Positions 4,035-60,406 are shown, counted from the first letter of the stretch. The stretch: 64,000 nt of DNA from Candidatus Woesearchaeota archaeon (GCA_018221105.1 JAAOYA010000008.1:64648-128647), one strand, 5' to 3'. A program made the numbers and translations. Notes: generated by a model from the sequence alone, not told the origin.

Positions 4035-5465
4035 TTAGCTGACAAGTATTTTAGCGGTTCGCTCATCTTTAAGCTCTGCGTAATGCGTCTCAAGCACTTC
4101 TACTAGTATACCATTGATTTCTTCTGCTTGTCCTACAATGATAGGATCGCTAGTGACATCGCCAACAGTTACTACTACCTCGTCTTCGCCTACATTAACT
4201 AATGTTATTGTTCGCTCATTAAAAATTACTTCTTGGCCAATACCCAGTAAAAAGTCTTCTGTTACTGGTTCTTGATTTAAGCATTCGTCAGTCAGCGCTA
4301 ATAACAATTTTGCTTTACGCTCTGTAGACATGTCAGCATAATAAGTGTCAAGAACTGTCACTTTGACACACCCAATAATTTCAGATTCTCCTTCTCTAGG
4401 ATCTCCTTTGAATTCATCAACTGAAATCAGTGTCCACCCGTCACTGCCAACATTTTCGAGTTCTACCACGTGCTCTCCAACACTTGTTGTTTGATCAGTA
4501 TACAAGTAAATTGTTTCTTGAGAACTGTATTCTTTGCAAGCTCCCTCAACACAACCATAATCACAAGTGTACTCTTGTTTTGCTACTGTGCCATCGTCTG
4601 TGCAGTATTGTTCAAGTAACACATTGTACTCGCACTCATCATAATATTTTACTTCATCATAAATGACTTTTCCTGTAGTATAATAATTTTTTGAGCCATC
4701 ACTATCCCAACAAGTTGGTTCTTCTTTGCCCTCAAAGTGCTCTGCTATAACTTTTATTGGATTACTATAAACTTTTCCTTCGTACGTCAGGACAGTTATA
4801 GAATAATAGTTAAACTCCCCTCGTATTTGATCATTGAAAGCAGTTTTATCCCTATTAGTTATGTACGAAACATATTTTTGCTCTGGGTATTTTGGCCATT
4901 CAACCTCATTAGACCATACTACTTTGTAACCTTCAAAACCTGGACAAGTGTAAGGACTCCACTCTAAAAGCACTTGTTCTTCGTAAGCTTTACCAGCCAA
5001 TTCAACAGTATCTTCACAATCTAGAGCGTTTTCAAGCTCTTCTTTAAAATCTGGTTTATCAACATCATAATCTTTTTCAGGGTAATCTTTATCAGCATCA
5101 TATCCTTCATCTTCATAATCTTGTTTTGGCGCGCTTTGCCGACCAACTTTTTTTAAACAAACAATTTCCTGGCTTTGCGTGTCAATATACGAGTAAATTT
5201 CAAGACCAGATGTCACGTCAGTCATTGTAATCTTATAGTGAGACTTATTTTCTAAACTTATAGCGCACAACTCTTGAACAACACCATTCTCTAGCATACT
5301 TTGAGTGGCTGTTAGCCGTGCAACTGTTACGTCAGCATCAGGGTATTGGTCAAGAAAATCTTTGACTTGAGAGTTAGCCTTGAGTATTGTTAAAGGATCC
5401 ATAGGACCACAACTTACCAAAAACATTGCCGTCAAAATTGTTAGTAGCACAAAAAGTTTTTTCAT
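4035..5465 (-). CDS. secreted lipoprotein, hypothetical (acidic, Cys-containing)
   Basis: N-terminal signal peptide with lipobox-like LVSCG; long acidic region (DYEDEGYDADKDYPEKDYDVD); multiple Cys pairs. Confidence 0.5.
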   Translation of the reverse strand: MKKLFVLLTILTAMFLVSCGPMDPLTILKANSQVKDFLDQYPDADVTVARLTATQSMLENGVVQELCAISLENKSHYKITMTDVTSGLEIYSYIDTQSQEIVCLKKVGRQSAPKQDYEDEGYDADKDYPEKDYDVDKPDFKEELENALDCEDTVELAGKAYEEQVLLEWSPYTCPGFEGYKVVWSNEVEWPKYPEQKYVSYITNRDKTAFNDQIRGEFNYYSITVLTYEGKVYSNPIKVIAEHFEGKEEPTCWDSDGSKNYYTTGKVIYDEVKYYDECEYNVLLEQYCTDDGTVAKQEYTCDYGCVEGACKEYSSQETIYLYTDQTTSVGEHVVELENVGSDGWTLISVDEFKGDPREGESEIIGCVKVTVLDTYYADMSTERKAKLLLALTDECLNQEPVTEDFLLGIGQEVIFNERTITLVNVGEDEVVVTVGDVTSDPIIVGQAEEINGILVEVLETHYAELKDERTAKILVS

Positions 5466-18426: not shown

Positions 18427-18436
18427 CCTTTATTTT

Positions 18437-18532
18437 GGGCCCGTAGCTTAGTCCGGTGGAGCGCACGACTGATAACACAGTCTAACTGTGACTGAAATCG
18501 TGAGGTCCGGAGTTCAAATCTCCGCGGGCCCA
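18437..18532 (+). tRNA. tRNA-Ile (GAU) with 22-nt canonical intron
   Basis: Acceptor GGGCCCG/CGGGCCC-A (conserved archaeal tRNA-Ile), D-arm GCUU-AGUCCGGUG-GAGC, anticodon stem CACGA/UCGUG with loop CUGAUA[intron]A, T-arm CGGAG-UUCAAAU-CUCCG. Confidence 0.75.
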
Positions 18533-18568
18533 TTCTAAAACCTTAAATAAAGTTATGATATCGTTTTT

Positions 18569-21629: not shown

Positions 21630-21730
21630 GTCCCCGTCGTCTAGTCGGATAGGACGCAGGCTTGCGGAAACAAAAAACAAGTTTTTGTTGCAATAAGCCT
21701 GTAACCGGGGTTCAAATCCTCGCGGGGACG
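21630..21730 (+). tRNA. tRNA-Arg (GCG) with 28-nt canonical intron
   Basis: Acceptor GUCCCCG/CGGGGAC-G, D-arm GUCU-AGUCGGAUA-GGAC, anticodon stem CAGGC/GCCUG with loop UUGCGG[intron]A, T-arm CGGGG-UUCAAAU-CCUCG. Confidence 0.6.
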
Positions 21731-45724: not shown

Positions 45725-46117
45725 ATGGTAATACTATACGATCAGTTCAACCTTCCAGACGACATATTCGAAATAATCTTTGCCACAGAACAACAAAAAG
45801 TCGTTGCTTCAATGCTAATAGAATACATGAAAAAACACGATGACGTCATTGGCAAAACAGAAATGAGCATGTTCGCCACAAAACTACACGACGGAACACT
45901 AGTAGAAGTTCAAGAAAGTGACATGCCAGGGCCAAAAAAGAAAGAAATGAAAATATCCTACAATAAAAGACAATTTTATGATCGCATCCTAACACCAATG
46001 AAAAGTATGGGACTAGTAGATTATGACCTGTACAAAAAAAATTATAGAATATCAGACAAGTTCAACAAAAACTTAATCCGCATCGGTCTGATGTGGGTTA
46101 GAGAAATAAACAAATAA
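45725..46117 (+). CDS. hypothetical protein
   Basis: 130 aa; no recognisable motif. Confidence 0.35.
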   Translation: MVILYDQFNLPDDIFEIIFATEQQKVVASMLIEYMKKHDDVIGKTEMSMFATKLHDGTLVEVQESDMPGPKKKEMKISYNKRQFYDRILTPMKSMGLVDYDLYKKNYRISDKFNKNLIRIGLMWVREINK

Positions 46118-46253: not shown

Positions 46254-47444
46254 TCAACTCAATTTTTTCTTCTTTCTAATTAGAATAAGCAATACTAAAA
46301 TAACAATCACTAAAACCAAAGTAATCAACAAAGTAGTATTTGTTGGCTTCTCGCCAAGATTAACATTAAGCACCGCGCCCTTTTCATATGTCAATTTATT
46401 ATTATAAACCACTCTACCACTAATAAAGTATTGTCCGACAGCCAAAGGCTCAAAAAAATCATCCAGTCTGACAGTTTCTTTAGGGCGCACAAGCAACTCA
46501 TCACTTTCTAAAATTTCAACAACACGAGTGTTATAAGTCACAGTACCCCTAAAACGAGCGCTAACACTAGTATCGCCCTTATTTTTAAAAACAGCGCTTA
46601 TAGGTACAACATCATAAGTTAATGCCCACGGAGGATTTTCAATGCGTATAAGCTCTCCAAAATCACTAAGTTGACCTCTATCAAGAACACTAAATGTTTG
46701 CAAGCCAGTATAACCACACTCGCCAACCACTATGTCAACCCAGTACTGTCCAATATCAAGTGAGTGATCAAGCAATCGCTCTGTTGTTTTAGTGGTTGTT
46801 GGCAGCGTCTGTTCAAGATTAAAACGCTGCGTGTGAACAATATTTTCTTGCAATTGATCCCAAACTTGCAAAGTGACCTCAGGGTTTAACCTAACATTGC
46901 CCTTATTGTTAAGCGTTGCAAAAAAAGATGTTAGTTGATCAATCTCACTATCTTTTAATTCTACCCCACCAATAGTACATGATACAATTTGCTCTCCAGT
47001 AATTTCAACAGTTATTTTTATCAAAAAAGCAGCTCTTATAGCACTACCCATGCCACTTTCAAATTGCGGTTTTTGTTGCGTTATAATTTTTAATTCTCCA
47101 GTGTAATTGCCAGTTTGAATATCTTGCGGTGGCTGTACTATAACTTGCAAAAAAAGAGGTTTATCTGCACTGATAACAACATTTTCAATGTCATCAAGTG
47201 ATGGTTCAAAACTAATCCAGTCAGTCACACTGCCTTTTAACTCATAAAGAATTGTCAAATTATCAGAAGTGTCTGTAGATATTGCTAATTGATCCTGAGC
47301 ATAACCACCTTTTAGCACATTACGATAATGCAGTGATGCAGGACTAACACCAAGACCAATACCATAAACTGTTGAAGTGAAAAAAATTAGTAGTAAAAAA
47401 CTGAGTAATGCTAAGCTTGTTTTTTTGTTCATTGTCATTTTCAA
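46254..47444 (-). CDS. cell-surface protein with N-terminal signal peptide and C-terminal TM anchor
   Basis: Signal MKMTMNKKTSLALLSFLLLIFFTST; C-terminal LLITLVLVIVILVLLILIRKKKK. Confidence 0.5.
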   Translation of the reverse strand: MKMTMNKKTSLALLSFLLLIFFTSTVYGIGLGVSPASLHYRNVLKGGYAQDQLAISTDTSDNLTILYELKGSVTDWISFEPSLDDIENVVISADKPLFLQVIVQPPQDIQTGNYTGELKIITQQKPQFESGMGSAIRAAFLIKITVEITGEQIVSCTIGGVELKDSEIDQLTSFFATLNNKGNVRLNPEVTLQVWDQLQENIVHTQRFNLEQTLPTTTKTTERLLDHSLDIGQYWVDIVVGECGYTGLQTFSVLDRGQLSDFGELIRIENPPWALTYDVVPISAVFKNKGDTSVSARFRGTVTYNTRVVEILESDELLVRPKETVRLDDFFEPLAVGQYFISGRVVYNNKLTYEKGAVLNVNLGEKPTNTTLLITLVLVIVILVLLILIRKKKKLS

Positions 47445-47465
47445 TTGTGTGCTAATATTAAAGTT

Positions 47466-50400
47466 TTATGATGCTGTAGCAGTAAAAACCACAATTCCTG
47501 TGCAATTACCTCTTGCTTGATTATTGGGTTGTAACTTCCAGTATACATTGCGCGTTGAAGGAGTCGCATTTGTTTGCTTTACAAGATCAAAAGTGGATAG
47601 CGTTACAGGGCTGTCACTGACCTGGGTCATTGAAATAAAAGGTTGGCCAGAGCTTAAACTGTAACGCTCTCCACTGTAAGAAATATTATTTTCTGTACAA
47701 TTCATAGCATAACCGTCATTGTCGTTTACGGCGTACGCGTCTAATTGTAAGTCTATTTGCGAGTTTCCAAAGTTGTTTACTGTTGCTATGACATCTGGCG
47801 ATGTTTGCATTAATTCTACATCGTCAAAATCAATAAGCGGCGTAATATTAATAGCATAAAAAGCATTAATTGTCACGTTATCTATTAGCGAGTCAGTATA
47901 GCCTCCAGTGTCAAGTGCTGTAACATTGCACCACCACGTACCATTATTTACATAATATGTAACATTAAAATCGCAAGTGAAGTTTTTATAATTACCAGCT
48001 GAACCGGCTTCTGCGCAACTCGTTTGAGTATAGTGAGTGTTATTATCATCAGCATCATTTGACTTGTTTAAATAATAGTAAATTGTAGCGTTAGCGCTGT
48101 CAATGTTTGCCGCTCCACTAAACTTGTAAACACTGGCATTGCAATATACAGGAGTTAAAATTCCTGCCAGCAAATCTATCTCGTTTGGCACTGGCGCAAA
48201 AAAGTCATCAAACAGGACTGACTCTACACTTGGCGATAAATCGCCCCATTCTGTACAAGTACCTCCCCCACCATAACTAATGTTAAATTGGAACCAGTCA
48301 ACATAAGCATCGTTGCCACCTGGTTCGCGATAATAAAATATTCTGATATCTAAACTGTTGACTTGTGACGCATTTAAAAAATCAAGGTCGCAATACTCTA
48401 AAGTGTTACTTACAGGACTTGTTATAGCACAACTGACAGTCTGCCAAGTGCTGTCATTGCGCCATTCGAAATGATCAAAGTTTATTTTTGTTCCAACATA
48501 GTGTTGCACCCAGACCCTGGCGGTTTTTACGTCAGTTGTTAATGGCAGGCTGTATGAAAAGTTTGCTTGTAAGTAATCAGTCTGCCCGTTAGTTAATGCT
48601 AGTGTTTCATAATTGCTATCCCCTGGCGTTAAAACATTGCTTAATGTTGTGCCTTGACCGTCACCTTCACTAATAGCATAAGCCAATGTGTTATCATAAG
48701 CTATAACTTCCGTAATATTAAAATAGCTTGTAGCGTTTAATTCTGTGTGGTTCTGATCTTCTGCCATTACACTAAAATTTCCAAAACAAGTATCTGTAGC
48801 ATTCCAATCAATTACAAATCCTCCGGTACTGTTGGCATAGACTGTTATTGGAAAGCCCGGTGCTAATTCTAAAGAGTCTTCATCACGAATAGTTAAGCTT
48901 AGGGTACCATTAACAGTATACCACTGTCCTGTTATCGTAACATTTTCATACGGTAAGTAGTCTGTTTGGTCAGTACTAAGCGTTGCAACTCGATTGTTTA
49001 CTGTAAAATTATCAGTTCCGTTAAGATTAGAATATAATATGTCAAAAACGCTAACATTGTAAAGTCCTAAGATAGCACTGTAGCCTATTGGAAAAACATA
49101 AACTATACCACCTGTGCTGTTGGCTGTTAGGTTAGTAATGTTTTGTCCAAGTGGATACACAATATCGATTGTTACATTGTTAAAAGGTGAGAATCCATAG
49201 CCTGTTATCAAAGCGAATTCTCCTTGAAAATAACTATTTTGTACGTTAACACCTGATGGCCTGGTATTGACATTAAAAGTTGTTGTAGCATTATCTGCTT
49301 CGTTGCCAAACTCATAAGCGTAAAGTTCATAACTTCCTGTAGGTTGATTAAAAGCAAGCGAGTAAGTACTGTTAAAATCTCCACTAGCACTAGTTGTTTC
49401 ATTCCATAATTCTATTGTGCCATTAGACCAGTTTAAGCGTAAAGTCACTGTGACTGTTGGATTCCAGTTAGCACCACTAATGTTAACTTGCCCTCCTTGT
49501 TCATAGTTTGGAAAATTTGTGCTCACTGCAGGACCAAAAAAATTCACAGTCAAATTATAAACTAGTGAACTGTTTTCAAAACCGTTACTATCAGTACAAT
49601 TAACACTCCAATTATGTTGACCATTAGCTAAGCTTACAGAAGTATTAAGTGCGATACCTTCTTGAGGGCTAGAAAAAGTATCTTTTTCTTGACCATCAAC
49701 AATCAACTCACAAGAACTTATAGTCGTCATCCTGTCTGTGACGTTAAATTCAAAAAAAACAGATGGGGAAACTGTCCAATCAGTGTTATTGCCTGGCAAC
49801 TCTAATTTTATTTGCGGTGGTTGCGTGTCAACTTTTACAATTTTTTTTGTAAAGTTAGTACCTTCATTATTGTTCTCATCAGTACAATTAACAGTCCAAC
49901 TCCAAACGCCATCAGTTATTGTAGTGCTAATGTTTGTTTCAGTGTTATTTAACACATTCAGTATTGTTTCATTGCGAGTATCATTTAGTATTAAAGTACA
50001 ATTAGCAATTAGTGAATTATCGATTGCCGTAAAATTAACATTCAATAAATTGTTAAGCCAAAAAGTATTATTGTCGGGCTTGCCAAGCGACACATTTGGA
50101 GCTACCAAATCTGGAGGACTATAATCGACTTGCAACCACATAGCATCAACCTGCCATTCAGTAATATCTTGTCGGCCACTAACAATGGTGTCAATGTTGC
50201 TAATAGTGCTGTTAATTTCGCTCCAAGTCCACGCAATACCTGTTGCTGGACTAAGAGTCCAAATGTATGTGAATTGTTGAAAGCTTGTGCTAGTAGCATA
50301 AGTTGCTGGAGCACCAGGGTAAGCAGACCCGCCTAAATAAATTTGTAGTGTTATACCTTCACTTGCTGCTGCGACATCTGAAGCAGCCCAAACAATCAAA

Positions 50401-50681
50401 GTAACATTATTTATTGTTCCGCTACCTGAATAGTTTGCAAAATTTGCGTGCAGCACGTCTCTTTTTGTCGTCTCGTAAGCTACACCCGTGCGCGTCGCGC
50501 TAAAAGTTGATTGGTCATGAACTCCAAGGTTTGCCTCACTAACCTGAGCCCACAAATTTAGTGGAGTCGTAGTAGCTGTTGTAGCGTTGAGTGTTAGAAC
50601 TATAGCTTGTATACTGGTAGAAAAAATTAGTGTAAACAATAATATTACAATAAGTAGTAATGATACCCTGTTTTTTCTCAA
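47466..50681 (-). CDS. large secreted surface glycoprotein (S-layer/adhesin-like), sequon-dense
   Basis: 1071 aa; signal peptide; dozens of N-x-S/T sequons; C-terminal about 250 aa homologous to the 296-aa neighbour, ending CTGIVVFTATAS. Confidence 0.55.
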   Translation of the reverse strand: MRKNRVSLLLIVILLFTLIFSTSIQAIVLTLNATTATTTPLNLWAQVSEANLGVHDQSTFSATRTGVAYETTKRDVLHANFANYSGSGTINNVTLIVWAASDVAAASEGITLQIYLGGSAYPGAPATYATSTSFQQFTYIWTLSPATGIAWTWSEINSTISNIDTIVSGRQDITEWQVDAMWLQVDYSPPDLVAPNVSLGKPDNNTFWLNNLLNVNFTAIDNSLIANCTLILNDTRNETILNVLNNTETNISTTITDGVWSWTVNCTDENNNEGTNFTKKIVKVDTQPPQIKLELPGNNTDWTVSPSVFFEFNVTDRMTTISSCELIVDGQEKDTFSSPQEGIALNTSVSLANGQHNWSVNCTDSNGFENSSLVYNLTVNFFGPAVSTNFPNYEQGGQVNISGANWNPTVTVTLRLNWSNGTIELWNETTSASGDFNSTYSLAFNQPTGSYELYAYEFGNEADNATTTFNVNTRPSGVNVQNSYFQGEFALITGYGFSPFNNVTIDIVYPLGQNITNLTANSTGGIVYVFPIGYSAILGLYNVSVFDILYSNLNGTDNFTVNNRVATLSTDQTDYLPYENVTITGQWYTVNGTLSLTIRDEDSLELAPGFPITVYANSTGGFVIDWNATDTCFGNFSVMAEDQNHTELNATSYFNITEVIAYDNTLAYAISEGDGQGTTLSNVLTPGDSNYETLALTNGQTDYLQANFSYSLPLTTDVKTARVWVQHYVGTKINFDHFEWRNDSTWQTVSCAITSPVSNTLEYCDLDFLNASQVNSLDIRIFYYREPGGNDAYVDWFQFNISYGGGGTCTEWGDLSPSVESVLFDDFFAPVPNEIDLLAGILTPVYCNASVYKFSGAANIDSANATIYYYLNKSNDADDNNTHYTQTSCAEAGSAGNYKNFTCDFNVTYYVNNGTWWCNVTALDTGGYTDSLIDNVTINAFYAINITPLIDFDDVELMQTSPDVIATVNNFGNSQIDLQLDAYAVNDNDGYAMNCTENNISYSGERYSLSSGQPFISMTQVSDSPVTLSTFDLVKQTNATPSTRNVYWKLQPNNQARGNCTGIVVFTATAS

Positions 50682-50747
50682 TTCAATGACCCCTAAAATC
50701 TCCTATTGTTCAACAATTAGAAAACTGCACTTAAAGGTTTAAAAAGT

Positions 50748-51638
50748 TTATGCTATCGAAGCAGTAAATTGTATAAATCCAGTGCACACGCCAAAAGGGT
50801 TCGGTGGAACATATAATTGCCAGTATGTAGAATTATAAGTTACAGTGCTATCAGAAAGTCGTGAAATGATTGTAAGGTTAGTAACATTAAGCGCTGAACC
50901 ACTTGTTAGGTTAGTACGCTGGTTTAGTGTATCTGATGCGTTTAATGAAAATTTTAGGTTTTCAATAGTAATATTTTCAACAGGACAATCCATTGCCAGT
51001 CCGTCACCTGGTGTTACTCCAAAGCCTTCTACTGTAACATTAATGTTGCGATTGCCCCAGTTTGTTACATTGGCAACTATGGTGGTGGAGTTATCCCCCA
51101 CCGATAAGTTGCCAAAATCCAACAAGCCAGGTGTAACATTGATAGCGTATAAAGAACTGATAGTGCTACTATTCCAAGCAATATCTGTAAAGTTCCAATC
51201 ATCGATTACTGTTGCATTGCACCACCAAGTGCCATTAAAAGCATAATATTCAACATCAAATATGCAAGTATAATTTGCATAATTTCCATCAGTATCTATT
51301 TCAGTACAAGTACTGTCATTATAGTGTTCGTTATTGTCATTAGCTTGATTTGAAGCGTTTAAACTGTAATAGAATGTTGCGTTAACACCTTGTATATCGC
51401 CAAAACCATTATAATCTAGTATGCTAACTGAACAATTAATTGCTATTGTTCTACCAGCATTTAGCACTATGTTTGAGCCTTGATTTACTATAACTTGTAG
51501 TATTGAAGGACCAGTGTTTGTCACGTTAACTTTTGTTGAGACATTGACGTATTCAAAATTATAAGCTAGTGCTGGTCCAAAAAGAATTACTGCCGTTAAT
51601 AAAATAAGTATTAACACCTTTGTTGCTTGTTGACTCAT
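50748..51638 (-). CDS. secreted surface protein, paralogous to the C-terminal domain of the upstream 1071-aa protein
   Basis: Shared blocks YYSLNASNQANDNNEHY.../...NGTWWCN... and the C-terminal motif CTGFIQFTASIA. Confidence 0.5.
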   Translation of the reverse strand: MSQQATKVLILILLTAVILFGPALAYNFEYVNVSTKVNVTNTGPSILQVIVNQGSNIVLNAGRTIAINCSVSILDYNGFGDIQGVNATFYYSLNASNQANDNNEHYNDSTCTEIDTDGNYANYTCIFDVEYYAFNGTWWCNATVIDDWNFTDIAWNSSTISSLYAINVTPGLLDFGNLSVGDNSTTIVANVTNWGNRNINVTVEGFGVTPGDGLAMDCPVENITIENLKFSLNASDTLNQRTNLTSGSALNVTNLTIISRLSDSTVTYNSTYWQLYVPPNPFGVCTGFIQFTASIA

Positions 51639-51721
51639 TTTTGCCTATTAAATGTTGTTGGATTATATATCAGTATAGCTTTATGTATATTAGGATGCGT
51701 ACTCCTATATAAATGTTTCGA

Positions 51722-54637
51722 TTAAACTTTATCAAGTACTCTAGCATATTTTTCATGAACATAATTTATGAGTTTTGAATCCTTTGCAGGCTGCAATCCA
51801 GCCCTATGATACAAGCTTTCAACCTTTCTTGTGTGTTCTCGCGCAATATCATGATTTTTATCTATTAGTGCTGCTTTTGCCCTGCCAAGATAAAATACCA
51901 TCATCAATTGATTATAAACTTCTTGTACTAGTTGTTGTTCAAAAATAGTGCTTGGCTCTAATGTTAGGCTTTGCTTGTACAAATCATATGCACTAACAAA
52001 GTCAAGACTTCGAAGTTTTTCTTTTGCAAGCTCTAAGTTTTGATAAATTAAACTTTTTGGTGCTGGCAACGCGCTTAAGCCTTCAAAAGATTTTTCATGG
52101 CTGATAATTGTCTTATCGCGCTTTGCAATAGTTTTTATTTTTTGCAGAACATTATTATTTGTGCTAATAGAGTCTGAAAGCACTACAGTGTAATAGACCA
52201 CTAATAAAATAATCGCAATCAAAGCTAAGACTAGTGGAACACTGCTAAAAATGCTTTTTACAAAACCATCACTTTGCGCTACAGCATTACCTGTTACTTT
52301 CGACTCGCCAGTTGCATCCACTGTTTCTTTTTGGACCAACACACTAGGGTTTTGTACGTAAACAGTTTGAATAGCTTTTAAATCATTAAAATCAATTATT
52401 TTTTCAATCACATAACTAAGTTTTTCACTCTTAAGTGTTGCAAAATCCCAAGATACCACAGGATCTTTTTTTAGCACAGTTGGCTCTTTGGAATAACTTA
52501 TTTGTGAAGCATCAAAAACAACAGCTTTTGGAATTTTTTCAACCAGTACAACATTTGATTGCTCGCTAGTAGCACTAATAGTTTTTTGTACAATTGTAAA
52601 ATCTTGCGAATCCTTAAACTCTCCATAATCTAATCTTGCGCTAATAAAAACGTTAGTGGTGCTTATCAAGTCATTAAATTCAATGCTTTGTTTTTCTAGT
52701 TGTGAGCGTTGTTTTTTTGGCAAGTCTAACCCTATAATAATCTCACTTAGAGCCTCACTAACAGCTTGCTTGCCAGACGTTAGTGGAGTATAATCAGCCT
52801 TTTTTAATACTTCAATGTGCGTTACAATGCCGCTTTTTGCATTTTGTGCTTTTTCTTTTAATTGTTGTATACGCTCTAACAATTGTTCTTCGTCAAGATC
52901 TAACTTTAGCAAATCTTGTGCCTGGCTTTGATAAGTAGTTATAGCGTTTCGAGCTTCTATAGCGTTTTGCATCAAACTCAATTCTTTGATAACAGTTACT
53001 TTTACAGGATCAGTCTCGCTTTCAAGATTTCCTATCAACCAATCAGCATCTATTAATTGTTTGTCAATAATTTTTTTTGTCGTATTGACAAGAGGATAAT
53101 ATTTCGGATTCAATCCTTTTGACTCAACAATGTTTTCTTGTTGTTTTTTATCATCATAGTATATCGCGCTAAACTGTTCGCTAGATAATGGTCCAACATT
53201 GCCAGCATCATCAACAACCGCAACCCTATAATAATAAATCAAACCTTCTTCAACATCATCGTCATAATAATGTTCATCATCAGTATCATCATAAAAGTCT
53301 ACAAATTCAACCCCAGGACTTTCACGTCTATAAATATTATACTTGTCAACTTGTTCACTATCATAGTACAAACTGATTTTTATTCTGTCATCATCATTTT
53401 CCACTCTGAAACTTGTTGGGGCTGTTGGTTTTGAAGTATCTACTAAAAATATTTCTCCGCCAGTAATTTGGTTGCCTGCTAGTCCTTCAGTATCAACTCC
53501 GCTGAAATAAAAAGTTCCTATTTTGTCAACATCATAGATTGGTATTATCATAAAACCGTTCCAATTTGTTGGTCCGCCAGTTAAAGAAATTGTTTTTTTT
53601 GCACTATCATCATTGTAATTATATTGTAGTGTTGGAGTGTTAACTAATGGTTTTGAACTAATTAGTGTTACCTTGACCGTTCCTTCTTGTAGCGGAGTAT
53701 TCTCACCTAAGTTGATGTTTGATGTTGGCGGCAGCGTGGCACTAAAAGATATGAGCGTGCTTGATAACATAATGTTTCCTGCTAAGTCAATGCATCTAAC
53801 ATGATAATTATTGATTCCTTGCACTAAATCACTGACTGTTATACTGTGCGTTATTGAATCACTGCTTTGCAGGTTGCTAGTCATGTCGGCGTAACCAATA
53901 TTTTGTTTTGAATTTTTACAACTACTTTTTTCATTAGTTGTCACTTGTAATGTTGTACTAGCACTTTTGATAAGACTTGTTGGGCTAACACTGGTTATTG
54001 CAGGAGGTGTAAAATCAACATAAAAAGTCAGCGTGTGCGATGAACTCATAGCATTGCCCGCATTGTCTGCGCACCTGATATAAATTGTGTTAGTGCCTTG
54101 TGATAAATCAGTAATTGTCCCGTCATGAGCAGTGTTAAAGCCTGCAAAAGAATAAATCATTATAGCATAAGTAGTATCAACATAATCGTATTTACACCAG
54201 CTTTGCTCGTCAGTGACTGCTGTTATTATTGTCGCAATGGTATTAAATGTTAATCCTTGCGGGTGGCTGTAAGTTATTATCGGAGCTGTCGTGTCAATGA
54301 CTGTAAAACTATCAGAGAGCATTGTGCTTTGAGAGTTCTCAACTGCATATATTTTGTAGTTATTGACTCCTATATTTGTTGGAGTCCAACTATAATCATA
54401 AAGACCAAAATTATAGTTCATTGAATAATTTTGATTTTCAAACTCCAAAAATACATTTGTTAGCGGGCTTTGTGAAGTAATGTTGGCTCGCAAAAATTGC
54501 AAGTTTGTATGAGCTAGCGGATCTGTCAAACTAACAACTTCAATTGTCGCTCCGCTAACAAAAGTTGACAGTACTGTTGTAAGTATTACTAACATTATTG
54601 TTAGAGTGATATGCTTTTTTTGTTGTTTTTTTGTCAT
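51722..54637 (-). CDS. large type-I membrane surface protein with internal repeats and helical cytoplasmic tail
   Basis: Signal peptide; repeated about 110-aa modules (...C.YD...Y..M...H...I..L..G.N.Y..RC.D.AGN...); TM SVPLVLALIAIILLVVYYTVVL; about 150-aa cytoplasmic C-terminus. Confidence 0.55.
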   Translation of the reverse strand: MTKKQQKKHITLTIMLVILTTVLSTFVSGATIEVVSLTDPLAHTNLQFLRANITSQSPLTNVFLEFENQNYSMNYNFGLYDYSWTPTNIGVNNYKIYAVENSQSTMLSDSFTVIDTTAPIITYSHPQGLTFNTIATIITAVTDEQSWCKYDYVDTTYAIMIYSFAGFNTAHDGTITDLSQGTNTIYIRCADNAGNAMSSSHTLTFYVDFTPPAITSVSPTSLIKSASTTLQVTTNEKSSCKNSKQNIGYADMTSNLQSSDSITHSITVSDLVQGINNYHVRCIDLAGNIMLSSTLISFSATLPPTSNINLGENTPLQEGTVKVTLISSKPLVNTPTLQYNYNDDSAKKTISLTGGPTNWNGFMIIPIYDVDKIGTFYFSGVDTEGLAGNQITGGEIFLVDTSKPTAPTSFRVENDDDRIKISLYYDSEQVDKYNIYRRESPGVEFVDFYDDTDDEHYYDDDVEEGLIYYYRVAVVDDAGNVGPLSSEQFSAIYYDDKKQQENIVESKGLNPKYYPLVNTTKKIIDKQLIDADWLIGNLESETDPVKVTVIKELSLMQNAIEARNAITTYQSQAQDLLKLDLDEEQLLERIQQLKEKAQNAKSGIVTHIEVLKKADYTPLTSGKQAVSEALSEIIIGLDLPKKQRSQLEKQSIEFNDLISTTNVFISARLDYGEFKDSQDFTIVQKTISATSEQSNVVLVEKIPKAVVFDASQISYSKEPTVLKKDPVVSWDFATLKSEKLSYVIEKIIDFNDLKAIQTVYVQNPSVLVQKETVDATGESKVTGNAVAQSDGFVKSIFSSVPLVLALIAIILLVVYYTVVLSDSISTNNNVLQKIKTIAKRDKTIISHEKSFEGLSALPAPKSLIYQNLELAKEKLRSLDFVSAYDLYKQSLTLEPSTIFEQQLVQEVYNQLMMVFYLGRAKAALIDKNHDIAREHTRKVESLYHRAGLQPAKDSKLINYVHEKYARVLDKV

Positions 54638-55049
54638 GGTTTTTTGATTTATTCGTTTAGTGATTTCTGCGCTTTCAACCCTCTTTTTTGTTTATTTTGA
54701 TAGGTTGTCGATTAGCTTTTGATCTTTTTTTATGTGCTCTTCGATAGCTTTTTCAAAGTAATCATTTAGTGTTATGCCTTTGAGCACAGAAATCACTTTT
54801 GCCTTTGTGTGCAGTTTCCCTGCTAGTTTTATGTTAACTCTTTTCATGTGTTTATAGTATAATCATCTAGTTTTTGTCTAGTCACGACTCTTGAAAAGTC
54901 ACTTTCATAATCATTCTAACTAAAATGATTTAAAAACTTTACTATTTTTTATGATATAACTAAAATATAGCATAAAAATATTTCTATCATTTTTATGATG
55001 AAAATCATTTCATTTATTGTCGAGAAATTCAAAAAATAAACATATTTAC

Positions 55050-56819
55050 TTATTTTAGTTCATCCAATTCTTTTTTAGAATTATTTTTTGCAGAACTAAC
55101 ACCAGAATCTTCAGCGTTCACAGTTGAATCATCAGATTTTTTCTTTTCATCTGATGATTCTTTTCCAGCCAACTGATCATAAAGCTTTTGCTTTTCTTCA
55201 TACTGATCGTAAACTTCCACAAGCATATTATAAATATTCTTTAGTGGAGGATAATCTTTAGCAGCTTGTTTAAAATCAATATCATTTGCCAACTCGTAAA
55301 TCTCATCACACACTAATTTTTCAGTTTTGTAAGGGTTTTTGTGCTCCAAGTACTTATCATGAAGCTCTAAGATTTTTTTATACAAATATTTTAGACCATC
55401 AAATTTTTCTAAATATTTTTTGAACTCTTCACTTTTTGAAATATCATAAAGCGCTTCAGACAATTGTTGCTCTAAGTGCAACAAGTAATCATTTTCTAAA
55501 TCAATAAGCATTTGTATGTGTTGATGGTGTGTAAAATGAAATTTGTTAAGGCTTTTGAGCTTTTTGTGTTCATCATACTCAAAATATTTTAAAAACCCGT
55601 AAAACCCTGCTGGAATAATTCCAAAAGTCAAAATCAAAAGCAGTAAAAAATTTGTTAAGTAATCATTGCACAAAAAGAAAAAGTAATAATACAAAAATAG
55701 TAAGCTGCCTGACAAACTTATTAAAAAAGCAAATAAATAATTTTTTCTTCTTTCTGCCAAATAATTCTTTGCTTTTGTTAAATCATCTAATTCTTCATTT
55801 TCTTTAATTTTTTTAATTTTTTGCCCGCCATAATAAAGTCTTGTGCTAATCGAAACTATAACTATCGCAAAAAATATTAATAGTGGAATACCAAAATCTT
55901 CAAAAGGTTTTGTGCAAACAATTATTGTTGGCATTTCAAAAATTGGTTTTTCTAATTCATGACAAGGTATACACGGGCCGCCACAATCAGCACTGTCTTC
56001 TCCCTGATTTTGAATACCGTCATTGCAAGTAGGAACTAGTAATTCTTGTGGGCAAGACGTGCACGGGCCGCCACAATCAATGCCTTGTTCTCCCTGATTT
56101 TGAATACCATCATCACAGCTTCCTTTGTACTCGCAAAACTGTATCATTTCAGGCTTGTTAAAATAAGTTCTGCAAAAGTTTTTATCATAACAACTACGTG
56201 TTTGAGTATCGTCTGGCTGGCAAGGCTCCCACTCAAAACACTGCCAGTCTTCAACACAGGTAAATAATGTTCTTCCAGTCTTGCTTTGTCTTCCAACATC
56301 TACTTCTTGATCATCAACATCTCCACCTCCTCCACCTCCAGGGCCGCCTCCTCCTCCGGGGGTGCAAACTCCACAATCAGCTTGACAAGTTATACAACTC
56401 TCGCCTTCTGCACCTGTACAAATAGCGTCGCCACAATAAAAGCGTGGCCAGATAAAATTAACATTGCTAAAAACTCCACTAGTCCAATTCACGTTTCCTG
56501 AAGGTCCTGCTTCTTGCAAATTATAAAAAAATCTTATTATATCTCCTGGTTCTGCTCCCTCATCAGCAAGCGTTTGAGGATCATCACCTTTGCACGATAA
56601 TAGACCATAATAGTTATTATTTACTATTGTAAATTGTCCGCAAAGAGTATTGTTAGGGTCAACAGCATAAAGCGTGTAGCCAAAAGTAGTATTAGAGTTC
56701 ACATCAGTAAAGGCCCCGTAGAACTCCATAGATTTTGGTGGCAACGCAAGAGTTAGCACACTGCTAAAAAGTATTAAAATCATTGTTGTAGTAATGAATG
56801 TTTTTTTTGTAAGCAACAT
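55050..56819 (-). CDS. membrane protein with extracellular Gly-run and tandem Cys-rich repeats (C-x-DGIQNQGE-x3-DCGGPC-x2-C), multi-TM region and cytoplasmic coiled-coil tail
   Basis: Signal/TM at the N-terminus, GGGGGPGGGGGG run, two copies of the Cys repeat, 3 TM helices, acidic/coiled C-terminus. Confidence 0.5.
   Translation of the reverse strand: MLLTKKTFITTTMILILFSSVLTLALPPKSMEFYGAFTDVNSNTTFGYTLYAVDPNNTLCGQFTIVNNNYYGLLSCKGDDPQTLADEGAEPGDIIRFFYNLQEAGPSGNVNWTSGVFSNVNFIWPRFYCGDAICTGAEGESCITCQADCGVCTPGGGGGPGGGGGGDVDDQEVDVGRQSKTGRTLFTCVEDWQCFEWEPCQPDDTQTRSCYDKNFCRTYFNKPEMIQFCEYKGSCDDGIQNQGEQGIDCGGPCTSCPQELLVPTCNDGIQNQGEDSADCGGPCIPCHELEKPIFEMPTIIVCTKPFEDFGIPLLIFFAIVIVSISTRLYYGGQKIKKIKENEELDDLTKAKNYLAERRKNYLFAFLISLSGSLLFLYYYFFFLCNDYLTNFLLLLILTFGIIPAGFYGFLKYFEYDEHKKLKSLNKFHFTHHQHIQMLIDLENDYLLHLEQQLSEALYDISKSEEFKKYLEKFDGLKYLYKKILELHDKYLEHKNPYKTEKLVCDEIYELANDIDFKQAAKDYPPLKNIYNMLVEVYDQYEEKQKLYDQLAGKESSDEKKKSDDSTVNAEDSGVSSAKNNSKKELDELK
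55971..56125. repeat. intragenic tandem repeat (about 90-nt unit, 2 copies) encoding the Cys-rich DCGGPC module
   Basis: gggccgccacaatca...tctccctgattttgaatacc repeated with a few substitutions. Confidence 0.5.
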
Positions 56820-56858
56820 TTTTTAATATTTTTTTACAATCTATTTATTTTATGCAGT

Positions 56859-57530
56859 CTAACTAAATGTTAGTTGATTGTTTGAAAGCATGTAAATCCA
56901 ATAAGCGCTAAAAGGTTCCATATAATTTAGTGTTGTGTTAGGACCAATAGGATAATAATAATACCAAGTGCTGTCTGATGCATTGTAGTAACGCACTTCA
57001 CTAAAAAGTCCCGCTATGGGCGCTAGTACAGTAGTAATATTCTGTACTGTATTATCAGGGTATCCTATAAGATTCCAGCCACTGTAGAGCCATATTGTAT
57101 TTGGTTTTGTAAAAACGTCATAATAAAAATATGGAGTGTCATTATATGCCTCTATTATATAACCATCAACACGATTGATATGTGTTAAATCAAAAATTAC
57201 GTTTGCTGGCAGTCCTTGCTTGTAAGCTTTCCAAGGGTCAAAATTATCAGTTTCAACATACGAGAACGCGCCATAATATTCTCCACTAATATTTTCTAAA
57301 ACTGTCTCAATGGGACGTGACAGGTAAACGCAATAAAATGATACGTGATTATCACCTTGATAAAAATCAAATTGACAATTATAACTGTTAGTTCCAGTAA
57401 TATTGACTATTGCTGCAACAAAACCTGTTACTCCAGCATCAAAAAAAAATAGTACTACTATAAAAAAAAGTGTTAGTGCTAGCATTGTAGCCAATAATCC
57501 CAGTCTAACCCTTTTATGATATGGAAGCAT
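56859..57530 (-). CDS. secreted/membrane-anchored hypothetical protein (Tyr-rich)
   Basis: N-terminal TM/signal, sequons, Tyr/aromatic-rich. Confidence 0.4.
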   Translation of the reverse strand: MLPYHKRVRLGLLATMLALTLFFIVVLFFFDAGVTGFVAAIVNITGTNSYNCQFDFYQGDNHVSFYCVYLSRPIETVLENISGEYYGAFSYVETDNFDPWKAYKQGLPANVIFDLTHINRVDGYIIEAYNDTPYFYYDVFTKPNTIWLYSGWNLIGYPDNTVQNITTVLAPIAGLFSEVRYYNASDSTWYYYYPIGPNTTLNYMEPFSAYWIYMLSNNQLTFS

Positions 57531-57614
57531 AATAATATTTTATTGTGCTCAACTGGTATAAATAATCATCGAAAAAAATTACTTTTGTTCATGTACAGAT
57601 TTATGATGTTGAAC

Positions 57615-59381
57615 TCAATGTTTTCTTATATGATGTCCGCATTTTTTGCAAGTTTTTCTTTTTGGATGATTTTTTGTCTCACAATTCGGACATTTTTTCT
57701 TTATTGATTTGTAAATCAAAAATAATAATATTGCAAGCAACACTAAAAGTATCCAGAACACGTAATCAATTCCTGCTAGTTTGAATAAGAAGTCTGCATA
57801 AGTGACTCTCACTAATGCATTTTCGCGCATTCCGTGATACGCGCGAACTGTTAGTTCTTGATTGTCATCAAAATCTTCCTCTTGTAATTCTGCCTCAATA
57901 CCTATCTTTTTTTGTTTACCAACTTTGATAAATGTTGTTCCGTCAGCTCCAACAATTAAATCTTGGCCATTAACTATCAAATTAATAATTTCTGGAAAAA
58001 CATAAGCGTCAACTTCTCCAGTGTTTTCAATAGTCACCAAGAACTCTCCGCTCTTATCATAAACTAAATCTTTGATTTCTATTTGTGAATCATCAAAAAC
58101 TCTTACTATGCTAACAGTTAGTGTTGCTTCTAAAATATTTTCTAAGCTTCCTGGAGCTTCACCATATATTGTAAAAACTTTTGCTATCAGTGTGTTAAAA
58201 TCGCCAATTGCTTCTTCTGACTGGTATTGAATTGTTTTTGACTCTAAACCATCAATAAATATTGGATTGTCTTCTTCATCAATTTGTCCTGTTCGCTCAT
58301 CAATTTTTCTAAGCACAAACTCTTGACCATCAGCGTCAACAGTTATCGTGCTCTTAAAATAAGCTGCTAGTTCTTCAAGATTTTGATAACTAACTTCCAA
58401 TAATCCTGTTGCTTGATTATATTCAACACTTGATATGTTTAATTGTAACACGTAACGTGGCAAGTAAAACCTGTCCAAGTCTTCAACTGATGAAATGGTT
58501 CCTGATGGTATTCTAGCTCCTTGTCCGAACTTTACAAAAACTGGAATGCCAATTTGCCGTCTGATAAAAGTTGCTGCTCCTACAAGTTCATTTCCTATAA
58601 GTACTGCTACTTGTAAGTCGCTTTGTTCTATGTAATCACGTATTTTATCTGGTACGTTAGTACGTCCCAAAAATAGTACTGGGTCATTGCCGCTCATAAT
58701 GCTTGCTTCTATAAATTCCCCGTTTGTAATGATTGTTTGTTTGGCATCTGTTAGTTTTATGTATTCTTTTACTATTGCAATATTGTTATCGAAACGGTCT
58801 CCTTCATGGATTATTGTTGGACTGTAAAATTCTAATGCTGTTTTGACTTCACGGTCTACTTGACCGTAGATTAGTAAATCATTTACGCTGGCATCCGCTA
58901 GAAAATCCACTACATCATCAATGTTGTCACGATCAGCAAATAATACATAAGCATTTGTTTTTGCTGCGTAAGGTGCTACCGATATAGCGTTATAACCATA
59001 TGAATCATCTATTATTATAAAATTACTAATAGTGCCTATTAATTCTCTTGCTAATTCAATATTTGCTTGACGTGTTACTATTTCTTGCGCATTATAACCT
59101 CTGGACTCGATTATTGTGTCATAGCCTACAACATAAGGCTCTGATCGTGAACTGACCGCAGTAATATTTTCAACATTTAATGGAACAGCATTTAATATTA
59201 TCGGACCATGACGTGTGCTTGTCAGAAAAGCATAACTTTTTTGTTGCAAGTTCGCGTATTCTATTGTTGAATAAACATCGCGCCAATCTTTAGAATTTGC
59301 AATAATATATTGTGGTTGTGCACTAACAATTGTTACTATTAAAAAAATTGCTAATATTAAAGCTAAAATGTGTTTTTTCAC
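57615..59381 (-). CDS. surface protein with signal peptide, C-terminal TM anchor and cytoplasmic CxxC-x9-CxxC zinc-ribbon tail
   Basis: Signal MKKHILALILAIFLIVTIVSA; C-terminal WILLVLLAILLFLIY, then KKKCPNCETKNHPKRKTCKKCGHHIRKH. Confidence 0.5.
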   Translation of the reverse strand: MKKHILALILAIFLIVTIVSAQPQYIIANSKDWRDVYSTIEYANLQQKSYAFLTSTRHGPIILNAVPLNVENITAVSSRSEPYVVGYDTIIESRGYNAQEIVTRQANIELARELIGTISNFIIIDDSYGYNAISVAPYAAKTNAYVLFADRDNIDDVVDFLADASVNDLLIYGQVDREVKTALEFYSPTIIHEGDRFDNNIAIVKEYIKLTDAKQTIITNGEFIEASIMSGNDPVLFLGRTNVPDKIRDYIEQSDLQVAVLIGNELVGAATFIRRQIGIPVFVKFGQGARIPSGTISSVEDLDRFYLPRYVLQLNISSVEYNQATGLLEVSYQNLEELAAYFKSTITVDADGQEFVLRKIDERTGQIDEEDNPIFIDGLESKTIQYQSEEAIGDFNTLIAKVFTIYGEAPGSLENILEATLTVSIVRVFDDSQIEIKDLVYDKSGEFLVTIENTGEVDAYVFPEIINLIVNGQDLIVGADGTTFIKVGKQKKIGIEAELQEEDFDDNQELTVRAYHGMRENALVRVTYADFLFKLAGIDYVFWILLVLLAILLFLIYKSIKKKCPNCETKNHPKRKTCKKCGHHIRKH

Positions 59382-59503: not shown

Positions 59504-60406
59504 ATGAGCATTAAAGATTTAAAAGAGCGGGTTAAAAAGACTTTTTCTGAAAAAGAACAGTTACTTGATACTCCCAGAGAAGTTCCAGAACTGGCTGAAG
59601 ACTTATTTGAAGATGATAAACAATTAGTGCAAGATGTTAGTATTGCTACAAATTCTCAAAAAGAAGAAGTTAAAGTTGAAAATGTCATTAAAGAACCTGT
59701 AAAGCCTATTGTTCCTGACGAGTTGCCTGGCGCAAAAAAACTAGTTGTCCAAGAATCTATTAGTGTTAACGAGCCAAAAAAAGCAATGCAAGAAATCAAA
59801 TCTTCTATTCCAGCCCCGCCCGTTAATGTTAAGCCACAAGCCGAATATTTTGCAAAGCTAGAAAACATAATGTCTGATGATAAAGCAGCAATTAATGATA
59901 TTTTGTCAAAAGACTTGTTAAATGATATGAAAGATTATTATTCGAAAAATCCTAATGCTAAAATTATTGATGATTCTAAAGGTGAGATTGAAGTTTTGCT
60001 AAAATTAAAGATTCGTGAGCTTGAAGATTTTGAACGTGAATGGCTTGAGAACAGGAAAATTTTTGATGATTTAAAATTGCTATTGTTAAAAAAAGAAAAT
60101 CAAATTCGCAATTTGGCAGAAGAAGTTAAATCATTGTTTAAGCGTTTGCGCGAAGCAAACATTGCTATTAGTCCTGACAAGTATTTTGGTATTGCTGATG
60201 GTCGATTATTAAAAGGTATTACTGAGTTGAAGACTGCACTTATGAATATGAAAGACGAAGTTTTTGAACATCACGTGACTAAAGAACGCAATGATTTTGC
60301 TAGTTGGGTCGAAGGCGTTTTTAACATGAAAAATCTTGCTAGCAAATTGAAAAGCACAAAAAAACCTCAAGAAATGGTAGCTTTTATTGAAGAAGAAGGA
60401 TTCTAA
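59504..60406 (+). CDS. hypothetical acidic coiled-coil protein
   Basis: 300 aa, no recognisable catalytic motif. Confidence 0.4.
   Translation: MSIKDLKERVKKTFSEKEQLLDTPREVPELAEDLFEDDKQLVQDVSIATNSQKEEVKVENVIKEPVKPIVPDELPGAKKLVVQESISVNEPKKAMQEIKSSIPAPPVNVKPQAEYFAKLENIMSDDKAAINDILSKDLLNDMKDYYSKNPNAKIIDDSKGEIEVLLKLKIRELEDFEREWLENRKIFDDLKLLLLKKENQIRNLAEEVKSLFKRLREANIAISPDKYFGIADGRLLKGITELKTALMNMKDEVFEHHVTKERNDFASWVEGVFNMKNLASKLKSTKKPQEMVAFIEEEGF

Follow-up and report, generated by a model that had tools for sequence, protein, structure and literature searches.

A conserved cell-surface gene neighbourhood of Woesearchaeota and a predicted C-terminal immunoglobulin-like module shared by two of its proteins

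We describe a cluster of genes for cell-surface proteins, and a C-terminal module that two of these proteins share, in a 64-kb window (the whole stretch of DNA that was analysed) of a Candidatus Woesearchaeota metagenome-assembled genome (MAG; GOV04 locus tags, contig of 327 kb; exact protein look-up). Woesearchaeota are one of the most widespread DPANN groups; they are tiny and probably host-dependent, and their presumed dependence on other cells must operate via the cell surface. To our knowledge, nothing is known experimentally about this surface.

Gene content and predicted topology of the cluster

Seven open reading frames (ORFs), all on the minus strand, occupy positions 46254-59381 and encode proteins of 588, 223, 589, 971, 296, 1071, and 396 amino acids (aa); their number, strand, and interval, and the lengths given for some of them, are as in the initial annotation. 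Each gene is named here after the length of its protein in aa (g588, g223, etc.). The short gaps described between them are indeed 21-84 bp long, except for one of 413 bp, which holds a 51-aa ORF (g51) that had gone unnoticed. The features of the cluster are listed below, in the order of the minus strand.

57615-59381, minus strand: g588, with a signal peptide, an alpha/beta region, two immunoglobulin (Ig)-like domains, a transmembrane (TM) helix, and a cytoplasmic C4 zinc ribbon
56859-57530, minus strand: g223, anchored in the membrane by its N-terminus and with ~180 aa of extracellular domain (hydropathy)
55050-56819, minus strand: g589, with a signal peptide, an extracellular part containing 25 cysteines, three TM segments, and a helical cytoplasmic tail of ~180 aa
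54692-54847, minus strand: g51, a 51-aa ribbon-helix-helix (HicB-type) DNA-binding protein (ORF listing and homologues)
51722-54637, minus strand: g971, with a signal peptide, two tandem Ig-like repeats, an Fn3-like region, a long helical stretch, a beta region, a TM segment at 791-826, and a helical cytoplasmic tail of ~150 aa
50748-51638, minus strand: g296, the shared module on its own, with a Sec-type signal peptide, a conserved stretch at residues 26-44, and two Ig-like domains
47466-50681, minus strand: g1071, with a signal peptide, an N-terminal passenger of ~800 aa, and the C-terminal module, but no membrane anchor
47469-48293, minus strand: the C-terminal module of g1071 (residues about 797-1071), identified by BLASTP (E = 3e-48) and by a profile match
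46254-47444, minus strand: g396, with a signal peptide, a beta-rich ectodomain, and a C-terminal TM helix followed by RKKKK (hydropathy)

An N-terminal hydrophobic segment was detected by hydropathy in all seven proteins, compared with 8 of the 47 other ORFs of the window, which agrees with the signal peptides or TM anchors first attributed to every member. Further TM segments are found in four of them: near the C-terminus of g396, at residues 791-826 of g971, at residues 529-563 of g588, and, in three copies, in g589. The cytoplasmic tails that had been proposed were recovered for g971, g589, and g588 when hydropathy was combined with the positive-inside rule, and, for the zinc ribbon of g588, 20/36 homologues are recognized by zinc-ribbon models of Pfam. 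The cluster encodes, as first suggested, cell-surface proteins of a DPANN archaeon.

In the deposited annotation, all proteins of the cluster are hypothetical except g588, which is labeled "zinc ribbon domain-containing". The longest-ORF translations of g396 (46254-47444, TTG start) and g589 (55050-56819) are absent from the public protein collection, while the other five are present; the deposited annotation probably uses other start codons for these two genes.

A shared module at the C-terminus of g296 and g1071

The initial annotation had pointed to a C-terminal domain common to the 1071-aa and 296-aa proteins, and this paralogy is clear. Residues 797-1069 of g1071 align with residues 24-294 of g296 over a shared region of 276 aa, with 34% identity (BLASTP, E = 3e-48) and with all six cysteines in register. 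More than 200 close homologues of g296, of ~300 aa and each devoid of a Pfam domain, were found, and searches of Pfam and NCBIfam with the g296 module returned no match. In an alignment of 36 homologues, the six cysteines, which probably form disulfides, are conserved, as is the C-terminal YWQLYVPPNPFG.CTGT..FTA. The CTG..FTA tail noticed at the outset in the two proteins is thus a family trait, with C285 and G287 invariant and conservation of at least 90% at F291 and A293.

The AlphaFold2 model of g296 (predicted local distance difference test, pLDDT, of 91) consists of two beta-sandwich (Ig-like) domains with eight strands each. The tail forms the final beta-strand of the second domain (288-295, pLDDT about 90), and residues 20-44 have no regular structure in this monomer model. 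In a Foldseek search against the PDB, the models of g296 and g588 matched only generic tandem-Ig proteins, with TM-scores of at most 0.38.

A profile search with the module against 1.84 billion representative proteins (clusters at 50% identity) retrieved 2432 clusters at E ≤ 1e-3, including 487 at E ≤ 1e-30. Among the best 150 of the 2432 clusters, 79 were long proteins (414-4139 aa). The module ended 0-7 residues from the C-terminus in 78 of these 79, no internal TM segment was present in 68, and their median content was 5.9 N-glycosylation sequons (Asn-x-Ser/Thr) per 100 aa. The module was likewise C-terminal in 13/13 long proteins of the related loci described below, and in g1071 the profile matches residues 817-1070, stopping 1 residue from the C-terminus. 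It was not found in the viral contigs searched.

The N-terminal passengers of the long module proteins comprise Big_13 arrays, beta-helix, and Big_7, and are diverse and adhesin-like. The g1071 passenger contains Ig-like repeats at residues 190-395 and MG2-like segments, the latter with a Pfam score of 32.2 bits for MG2, just below the cut-off of 32.8. Only four full-length homologues of g1071 were found among 5.8 billion proteins, so this passenger is lineage-specific. The shared region as a whole is best described as a large and uncatalogued family of predicted two-Ig modules, obligately C-terminal and putatively glycosylated, carried by diverse surface proteins.

Sequon density and transcription units

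A very high density of sequons had been attributed to the cluster as a whole. When the observed numbers were compared with those expected from 2000 shuffles, only g1071 (60 observed vs 23 expected, z = 9.0) and g296 (22 vs 7, z = 6.5) turned out to be truly dense. Enrichment is marginal in g223 (6 vs 2.3, z = 2.6), no departure from background is seen in g396, g588, and g589, and g971 has fewer sequons than expected (3 vs 9.6, z = -2.4). The reversed motif is 3-5 times rarer than the sequon, and at ten sequon columns of the module the conservation across the 36 homologues reaches 70% or more. These patterns suggest that glycosylation of the module proteins has been selected.

The intergenic sequences were read by eye for terminators and promoters. 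T-runs follow g588, g589, g296, and g396, and TATA-like boxes lie upstream of g588, g223, g51, and g296. These signals, and the fact that some relatives carry the g51-g971 block inverted (see below), suggest that the cluster comprises at least two transcription units, and probably more.

Conservation of the neighbourhood across Woesearchaeota

The first relative examined, GCA_041660865.1, carries the cluster as the sub-blocks g588-(53 aa)-g223-g589, g51-g971, and g296-g396. A scan with g588, limited to one genome per species, identified relatives in 157 species genomes, all of them Woesearchaeota or Nanoarchaeia-type MAGs, even if a few records are labeled otherwise; 80 loci were fetched and searched by tblastn with the proteins of the window. 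Among these 80 loci, a g296-type gene is present in 49, g589 in 46, g223 in 42, g971 in 35, g51 in 34, and g396 in 20. The gene g589 directly follows g223 on the same strand in 42/42 loci holding both, and g971 directly follows g51, co-oriented with it, in 31/31 loci. The order g588–g223–g589–g51–g971–g296–g396 is found again in dozens of related species, with loci L004, L014, L026, L058, and L060 as examples, and the g51-g971(-g296) block is inverted in four others (L008, L010, L034, and L073). The cluster is a conserved neighbourhood and not a one-off island. The cluster-bearing records labeled "uncultured Methanosarcinales", "Alphaproteobacteria bacterium", or "Bacteroidota bacterium" (L006, L007, L012, L016 and others, L027, and P0231) are probably taxonomic mislabels or binning errors.

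Clustering of the ORFs of the related loci indicated that the conserved block reaches one gene beyond the seven-gene interval on each side. Both genes lie outside the interval first delimited, and neither product has a Pfam match.

59504-60406, plus strand: fam13, a 300-aa cytoplasmic protein, divergent from g588
45725-46117, plus strand: fam8, a 130-aa cytoplasmic protein, convergent with g396

A profile built on 13 homologues taken from g588 loci matches the fam13 protein (E = 3e-45), and the family is present in 14/80 loci. The fam8 protein is 61% identical to a homologue in locus L079 (profile E = 1e-67); its family occurs in 21/80 g588 loci, and it lies directly downstream of g396 in 10/46 g396 loci. 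The C-terminal ~70 aa of fam13 (HHV..E.NDFA.W) also end a 780-aa protein of related loci (L049:3450-5792), which has an extracellular part, a TM helix, and, by eye, an apparent P-loop (GSTGGGKT) ATPase. Several proteins of the neighbourhood may thus be linked by a cytoplasmic domain that they have in common.

The related loci carry additional families. One of them, fam1, consists of Sec-secreted, sequon-rich proteins of ~247 aa, with 163 copies in 56/80 related loci (e.g., L029:7344-8087), where a g296-type gene is usually preceded immediately by two copies. No Pfam match was obtained for fam1, and its similarity to the g296 module is only weak (hhalign E = 6e-5, 34 columns). Twelve related loci carry a gene for a signal peptidase I of the S26 family ~3 kb upstream of g588, for example at L026:7559-8062 (Peptidase_S26, E = 2.5e-5), and several small helix-turn-helix (HTH)- and AbrB-like proteins are also encoded. 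The signal peptidase S26 gene and the HTH families of these loci were searched for in the window and not found.

Association of g396 with module genes

Homologues of g396 are 32-45% identical to it. A scan of metagenome contigs anchored on g396 yielded 65 loci, and those in which the sequence extends 1.5 kb or more upstream of g396, 32 in number, were assessed. A module gene lies directly upstream of g396 on the same strand in 18/32 loci and is separated from it by only a Cys-rich membrane protein in 5/32; the divergent arrangement g296<g971<|g396> is seen in a further 5/32. Altogether, a module gene is located within two genes of g396 in 28/32 independent loci, with two to four module genes per locus vs a single g396. 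This arrangement makes g396 a candidate membrane receptor or stalk for the module. The TIGR01167 model scored below its cut-off on g396 (E = 0.096), whose tail consists of a TM helix and basic residues only.

Other members of the cluster

The most conserved member of the cluster is g588, with homologues 45-53% identical across the species sampled. Its AlphaFold2 model (pLDDT 85) comprises three beta-alpha units (24-285), a disordered linker (286-307), Ig-like domains at 314-426 and 434-532, a TM helix (540-559), and a C4 zinc ribbon. The two Ig-like domains are homologous to each other (hhalign E = 7e-11); among the alpha/beta units, only the second and third resemble each other by sequence, and weakly so (hhalign E = 0.008). 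The CWB2 model of Pfam (PF04122) scores 21.8 bits on g588, against a gathering cut-off of 24.9, with the motif A(I/L)S.AP.AAK, and it matches 6/36 g588 homologues at E < 0.01. A PDB profile search linked only the zinc ribbon, and weakly, to eL40 (E = 0.17). The "FlaF" label that some g588 homologues bear at JGI was not reproduced by Pfam or NCBIfam.

The N-terminal part of g223 is similar to the beginning of the g296 module (hhalign, 93% probability, E = 4e-7 over 56 columns). No Pfam or NCBIfam match was obtained for g589, whose extracellular part, with its 25 cysteines, includes two copies of C.DGIQNQGE..DCGGPC..C. These form a tandem Cys-rich unit at residues about 226-277 (55989-56144, minus strand), itself without a Pfam match. 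In locus L049, a copy of the unit that is 80% identical lies outside the usual position of g589, at ~9 kb upstream of g588. Given this displaced copy, the unit may be a mini-domain that moves among DPANN surface proteins.

For g971, internal repeats of about 110 aa ending in RC.D.AGN had been described. The repeats and their ending were confirmed, but they are ~95 aa long and only two in number (residues 114-212 and 206-305; nt 53723-54298), with 34% identity and a pairwise E of 2e-16; a third D.AGN lies inside the Fn3-like stretch. Big_13 matches this region at threshold (E = 6.5e-6), and homologues match Big_13 and fn3. Finally, homologues of g51, 46-65% identical, are present in 34 loci. 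One of them, of 54 aa and 55% identical, has a precomputed PF05534 (HicB) match; the g51 of the window has no Pfam match of its own.

A proposed surface display system

We tentatively propose that the cluster is the local copy of an envelope gene neighbourhood in which the module docks secreted glycoproteins onto membrane-anchored partners, forming a surface display or coat system, a reading that we favor while holding it to be somewhat short of probable. Proteins ending in the module (the 296-aa minimal form, the 1071-aa form, and others of up to ~4100 aa elsewhere) would be exported by Sec, trimmed by signal peptidase I, and heavily N-glycosylated. Being anchorless, they would be held at the surface by their C-terminal module, which would dock non-covalently onto membrane partners encoded by neighboring genes, the prime candidate being g396 with its beta-rich ectodomain and C-terminal TM helix. 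The rest of the membrane platform would be made up of g588, g223, g589, and g971, three of which are predicted to reach the cytoplasm. The possibly CWB2-like alpha/beta triad of g588, carried on two Ig domains, could bind glycans, and the small DNA-binding protein g51 would probably regulate the g971 unit. Platform and module would constitute the constant part of the system, and N-terminal passengers such as that of g1071 its variable, possibly adhesive part. The proposal draws on the conserved neighbourhood, the size and strict C-terminal position of the module family, its diverse passengers, the selected sequons, the proximity of module genes to g396, the sub-threshold CWB2 match of g588, and the signal peptidase genes of 12 related loci, as well as on the lack of an anchor on the module and the nature of its tail, which is a structural strand.

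Several observations weigh against this proposal. It is gene adjacency that suggests the link between the module and g396, and 4 of the 32 assessed g396 loci have no module gene nearby; g396 was moreover detected in only 20/80 g588 loci, partly because of incomplete flanks. The CWB2 assignment of g588 is below threshold and would be a lead only, and PDB sequence searches with the full-length g588 profile or its N-terminal sub-profile retrieved no CWB2 protein. In addition, fam1 was not found in the 64-kb window, so the local cluster may be incomplete and the model would ignore a major component. The cluster should be seen as a candidate for a coat role.

Alternative explanations

The same genes might instead form a dedicated host-contact organelle, the whole cluster serving to attach the symbiont to a host cell and not being part of the general envelope. 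Such a role would suit the DPANN lifestyle and small genome, the adhesin-like and fast-evolving passengers, and the three membrane proteins with cytoplasmic tails that could pass a signal; Ig-like/beta-helix predicted surface proteins of Nanobdella have also been proposed as host-interaction factors. For host-specific adhesins, however, the platform shows unusually high conservation (45-53% identity for g588 across 157 species that live in very different habitats), most platform proteins have few or no sequons, and the lineage has no known host. We regard this explanation as somewhat unlikely, and it overlaps with the docking proposal, in which the passengers alone would be adhesive. A fibre or lattice built by strand donation is unlikely in our estimate. 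The ~300-aa module proteins would polymerise via their N-terminal stretch, with g1071-like long forms at the tip or decorating the fibre and g396 or g588 anchoring its base. Such a structure would be a DPANN-specific archaeal counterpart, based on an uncatalogued domain, of adhesin-tipped chaperone-usher pili, the long module form recalling a tip adhesin whose C-terminal domain is pilin-like. Hydrophobic and polar residues do alternate in the mature N-terminus of g296 (26-44, YNFEYVNVSTKVNVTNTGP), which is highly conserved, with N38, T40, and P44 invariant, and has no secondary structure in the monomer model (pLDDT 56-76). The conserved N-terminal stretch is missing from g1071, the loci hold several paralogues, as if encoding major and minor subunits, and FimH is the top Foldseek match of g296 in the PDB. 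Archaeal threads (Saci_0406) likewise combine Sec and signal peptidase I with a conserved N-terminal tail and heavy glycosylation (PMC9715654). Ig-like subunits are a further trait in common with threads and with chaperone-usher pili (FimA/FimH). A clean split between short forms and long forms lacking the N-terminal motif was nevertheless only partly true: N-[IV]-T-N is kept in about 40% of the long forms and P50 in 82%, which led us to downgrade the donor-strand model. Unlike in threads and chaperone-usher pili, the predicted Ig folds look complete, with eight strands per domain and none evidently missing. The FimH match is weak (TM-score 0.34), the thread subunit is outside the best 50 PDB matches, and no chaperone or usher equivalent was identified. 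Type IV pilins and archaellins were also considered and rejected: the N-termini are, by inspection, Sec-type with A-x-A-like sites, and no archaellin or pilin Pfam match was obtained.

Closer to known archaeal envelopes would be a classical two-component surface layer (S-layer), with g1071 or g296 as the canopy (SlaA-like), g396 as the stalk (SlaB-like), and the other genes as unrelated neighbors. The arrangement is indeed of the SlaA/SlaB type, and resembles that of the proposed pair MJ1_0160 and MJ1_0707 in Nanobdella: g1071 and g296 are anchorless and sequon-dense, and g396, a beta-sandwich protein with a C-terminal TM helix, is directly downstream of the large secreted glycoprotein. The DPANN candidates elsewhere are also Ig-rich, anchorless glycoproteins of ~1000 aa, and work on Nanobdella proposes such Ig-rich glycoproteins, unrelated to this cluster, as S-layer candidates. 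Yet g1071 has only its four homologues, in contrast to the Woesearchaeota-wide conservation of the other cluster genes, and a module that occurs in many paralogues, on hundreds of different proteins as long as 4139 aa, is more easily understood as an anchoring domain than as a single lattice protein. In addition, g396 has no evident coiled-coil stalk, and no homology to these systems was detected. None of the seven proteins matches a known archaeal S-layer family in Pfam or NCBIfam (SlaA/SlaB, Methanococcales S_layer_N/C, DUF1608, and others), and PDB sequence searches with g1071, g971, g396, and the g588 profile gave nothing relevant. By these searches, no gene of the cluster is recognisable as a homologue of a characterised S-layer set. 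We find a two-component S-layer improbable. Sequence does not separate S-layer, fibre, and host attachment. By far the least credible explanation is that the conserved tail is a short sorting signal through which a sortase- or archaeosortase-like enzyme attaches the protein covalently to lipid or wall. The initial annotation had suggested that the tail might serve in sorting or assembly, and it is indeed conserved and always at the extreme C-terminus. However, the 10-11 residues that follow the conserved cysteine in g296 and g1071 include neither a hydrophobic helix nor a basic cluster, unlike a tripartite signal of the PGF-CTERM/archaeosortase or LPXTG/sortase kind. The tail is an integral beta-strand of the second domain, modeled with high confidence, and no archaeosortase-type gene was seen among the recurrent neighbors. 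The idea of an anchoring or assembly signal, first proposed for the short tail, gains substance at the level of the whole domain, since the module is obligately C-terminal on hundreds of different proteins.

Comparison with modular anchoring systems and significance

The proposed docking system is reminiscent of the S-layer homology (SLH) domains of bacterial S-layer-associated proteins and of the CWB2 domains of Clostridioides difficile SlpA and the Cwp family, where one module is carried by minimal and by many larger proteins and retention is presumably non-covalent; g588 may also carry a weakly CWB2-like triple alpha/beta repeat. The module described here belongs to neither fold and differs in being a two-Ig beta-sandwich with conserved cysteines (probable disulfides) and about 20 sequons, in being strictly C-terminal, and in that its proposed receptor is a membrane protein. 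We know of no cell wall polymer that could serve as ligand in this organism. Another parallel is the C-terminal domain (CTD) of the type IX secretion system (T9SS) of Bacteroidota (Por_Secre_tail), also an Ig-like beta-sandwich that is obligatorily C-terminal on unrelated large adhesin-like proteins. That domain is ~80 aa long, whereas the module is ~250 aa and gives no sign of cleavage; neither g296 nor g1071 matches PF18962 (Por_Secre_tail) at E ≤ 1. Archaea have a single membrane and lack a T9SS.

Literature searches found no described Woesearchaeota surface system like this one. A list of "hypothetical proteins" is replaced by a defined, conserved set of about ten genes, and the most useful product of the analysis is the definition of the C-terminal module together with its candidate receptor g396. 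The module family marks surface-displayed proteins of these archaea, some of them as long as ~4100 aa. Should the module indeed serve in anchoring or assembly, with g396 as receptor, a simple rule would predict the DPANN surface proteome from metagenomes, and there would be concrete pairs for binding tests and candidate targets for labeling uncultured cells.

Other features of the window

The cluster has the same GC content as the rest of the window and is flanked by housekeeping genes (XPD helicase, DHH/GAN nuclease, MscS, Mre11-like phosphoesterase, and HerA). Another secreted Cys-rich protein may be encoded by a 476-aa ORF at 4035-5465 (minus strand), which has a hydrophobic segment at its N-terminus, contains 13 cysteines, and lacks a convincing Pfam match. 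Two tRNA genes of 96-101 nt, at 18436-18533 and 21630-21730 (both on the plus strand), give full-length matches to the Rfam tRNA model. The former was reported by ARAGORN as "tRNA-???" with an odd anticodon loop, and the latter was missed; both look like intron-containing archaeal tRNAs.

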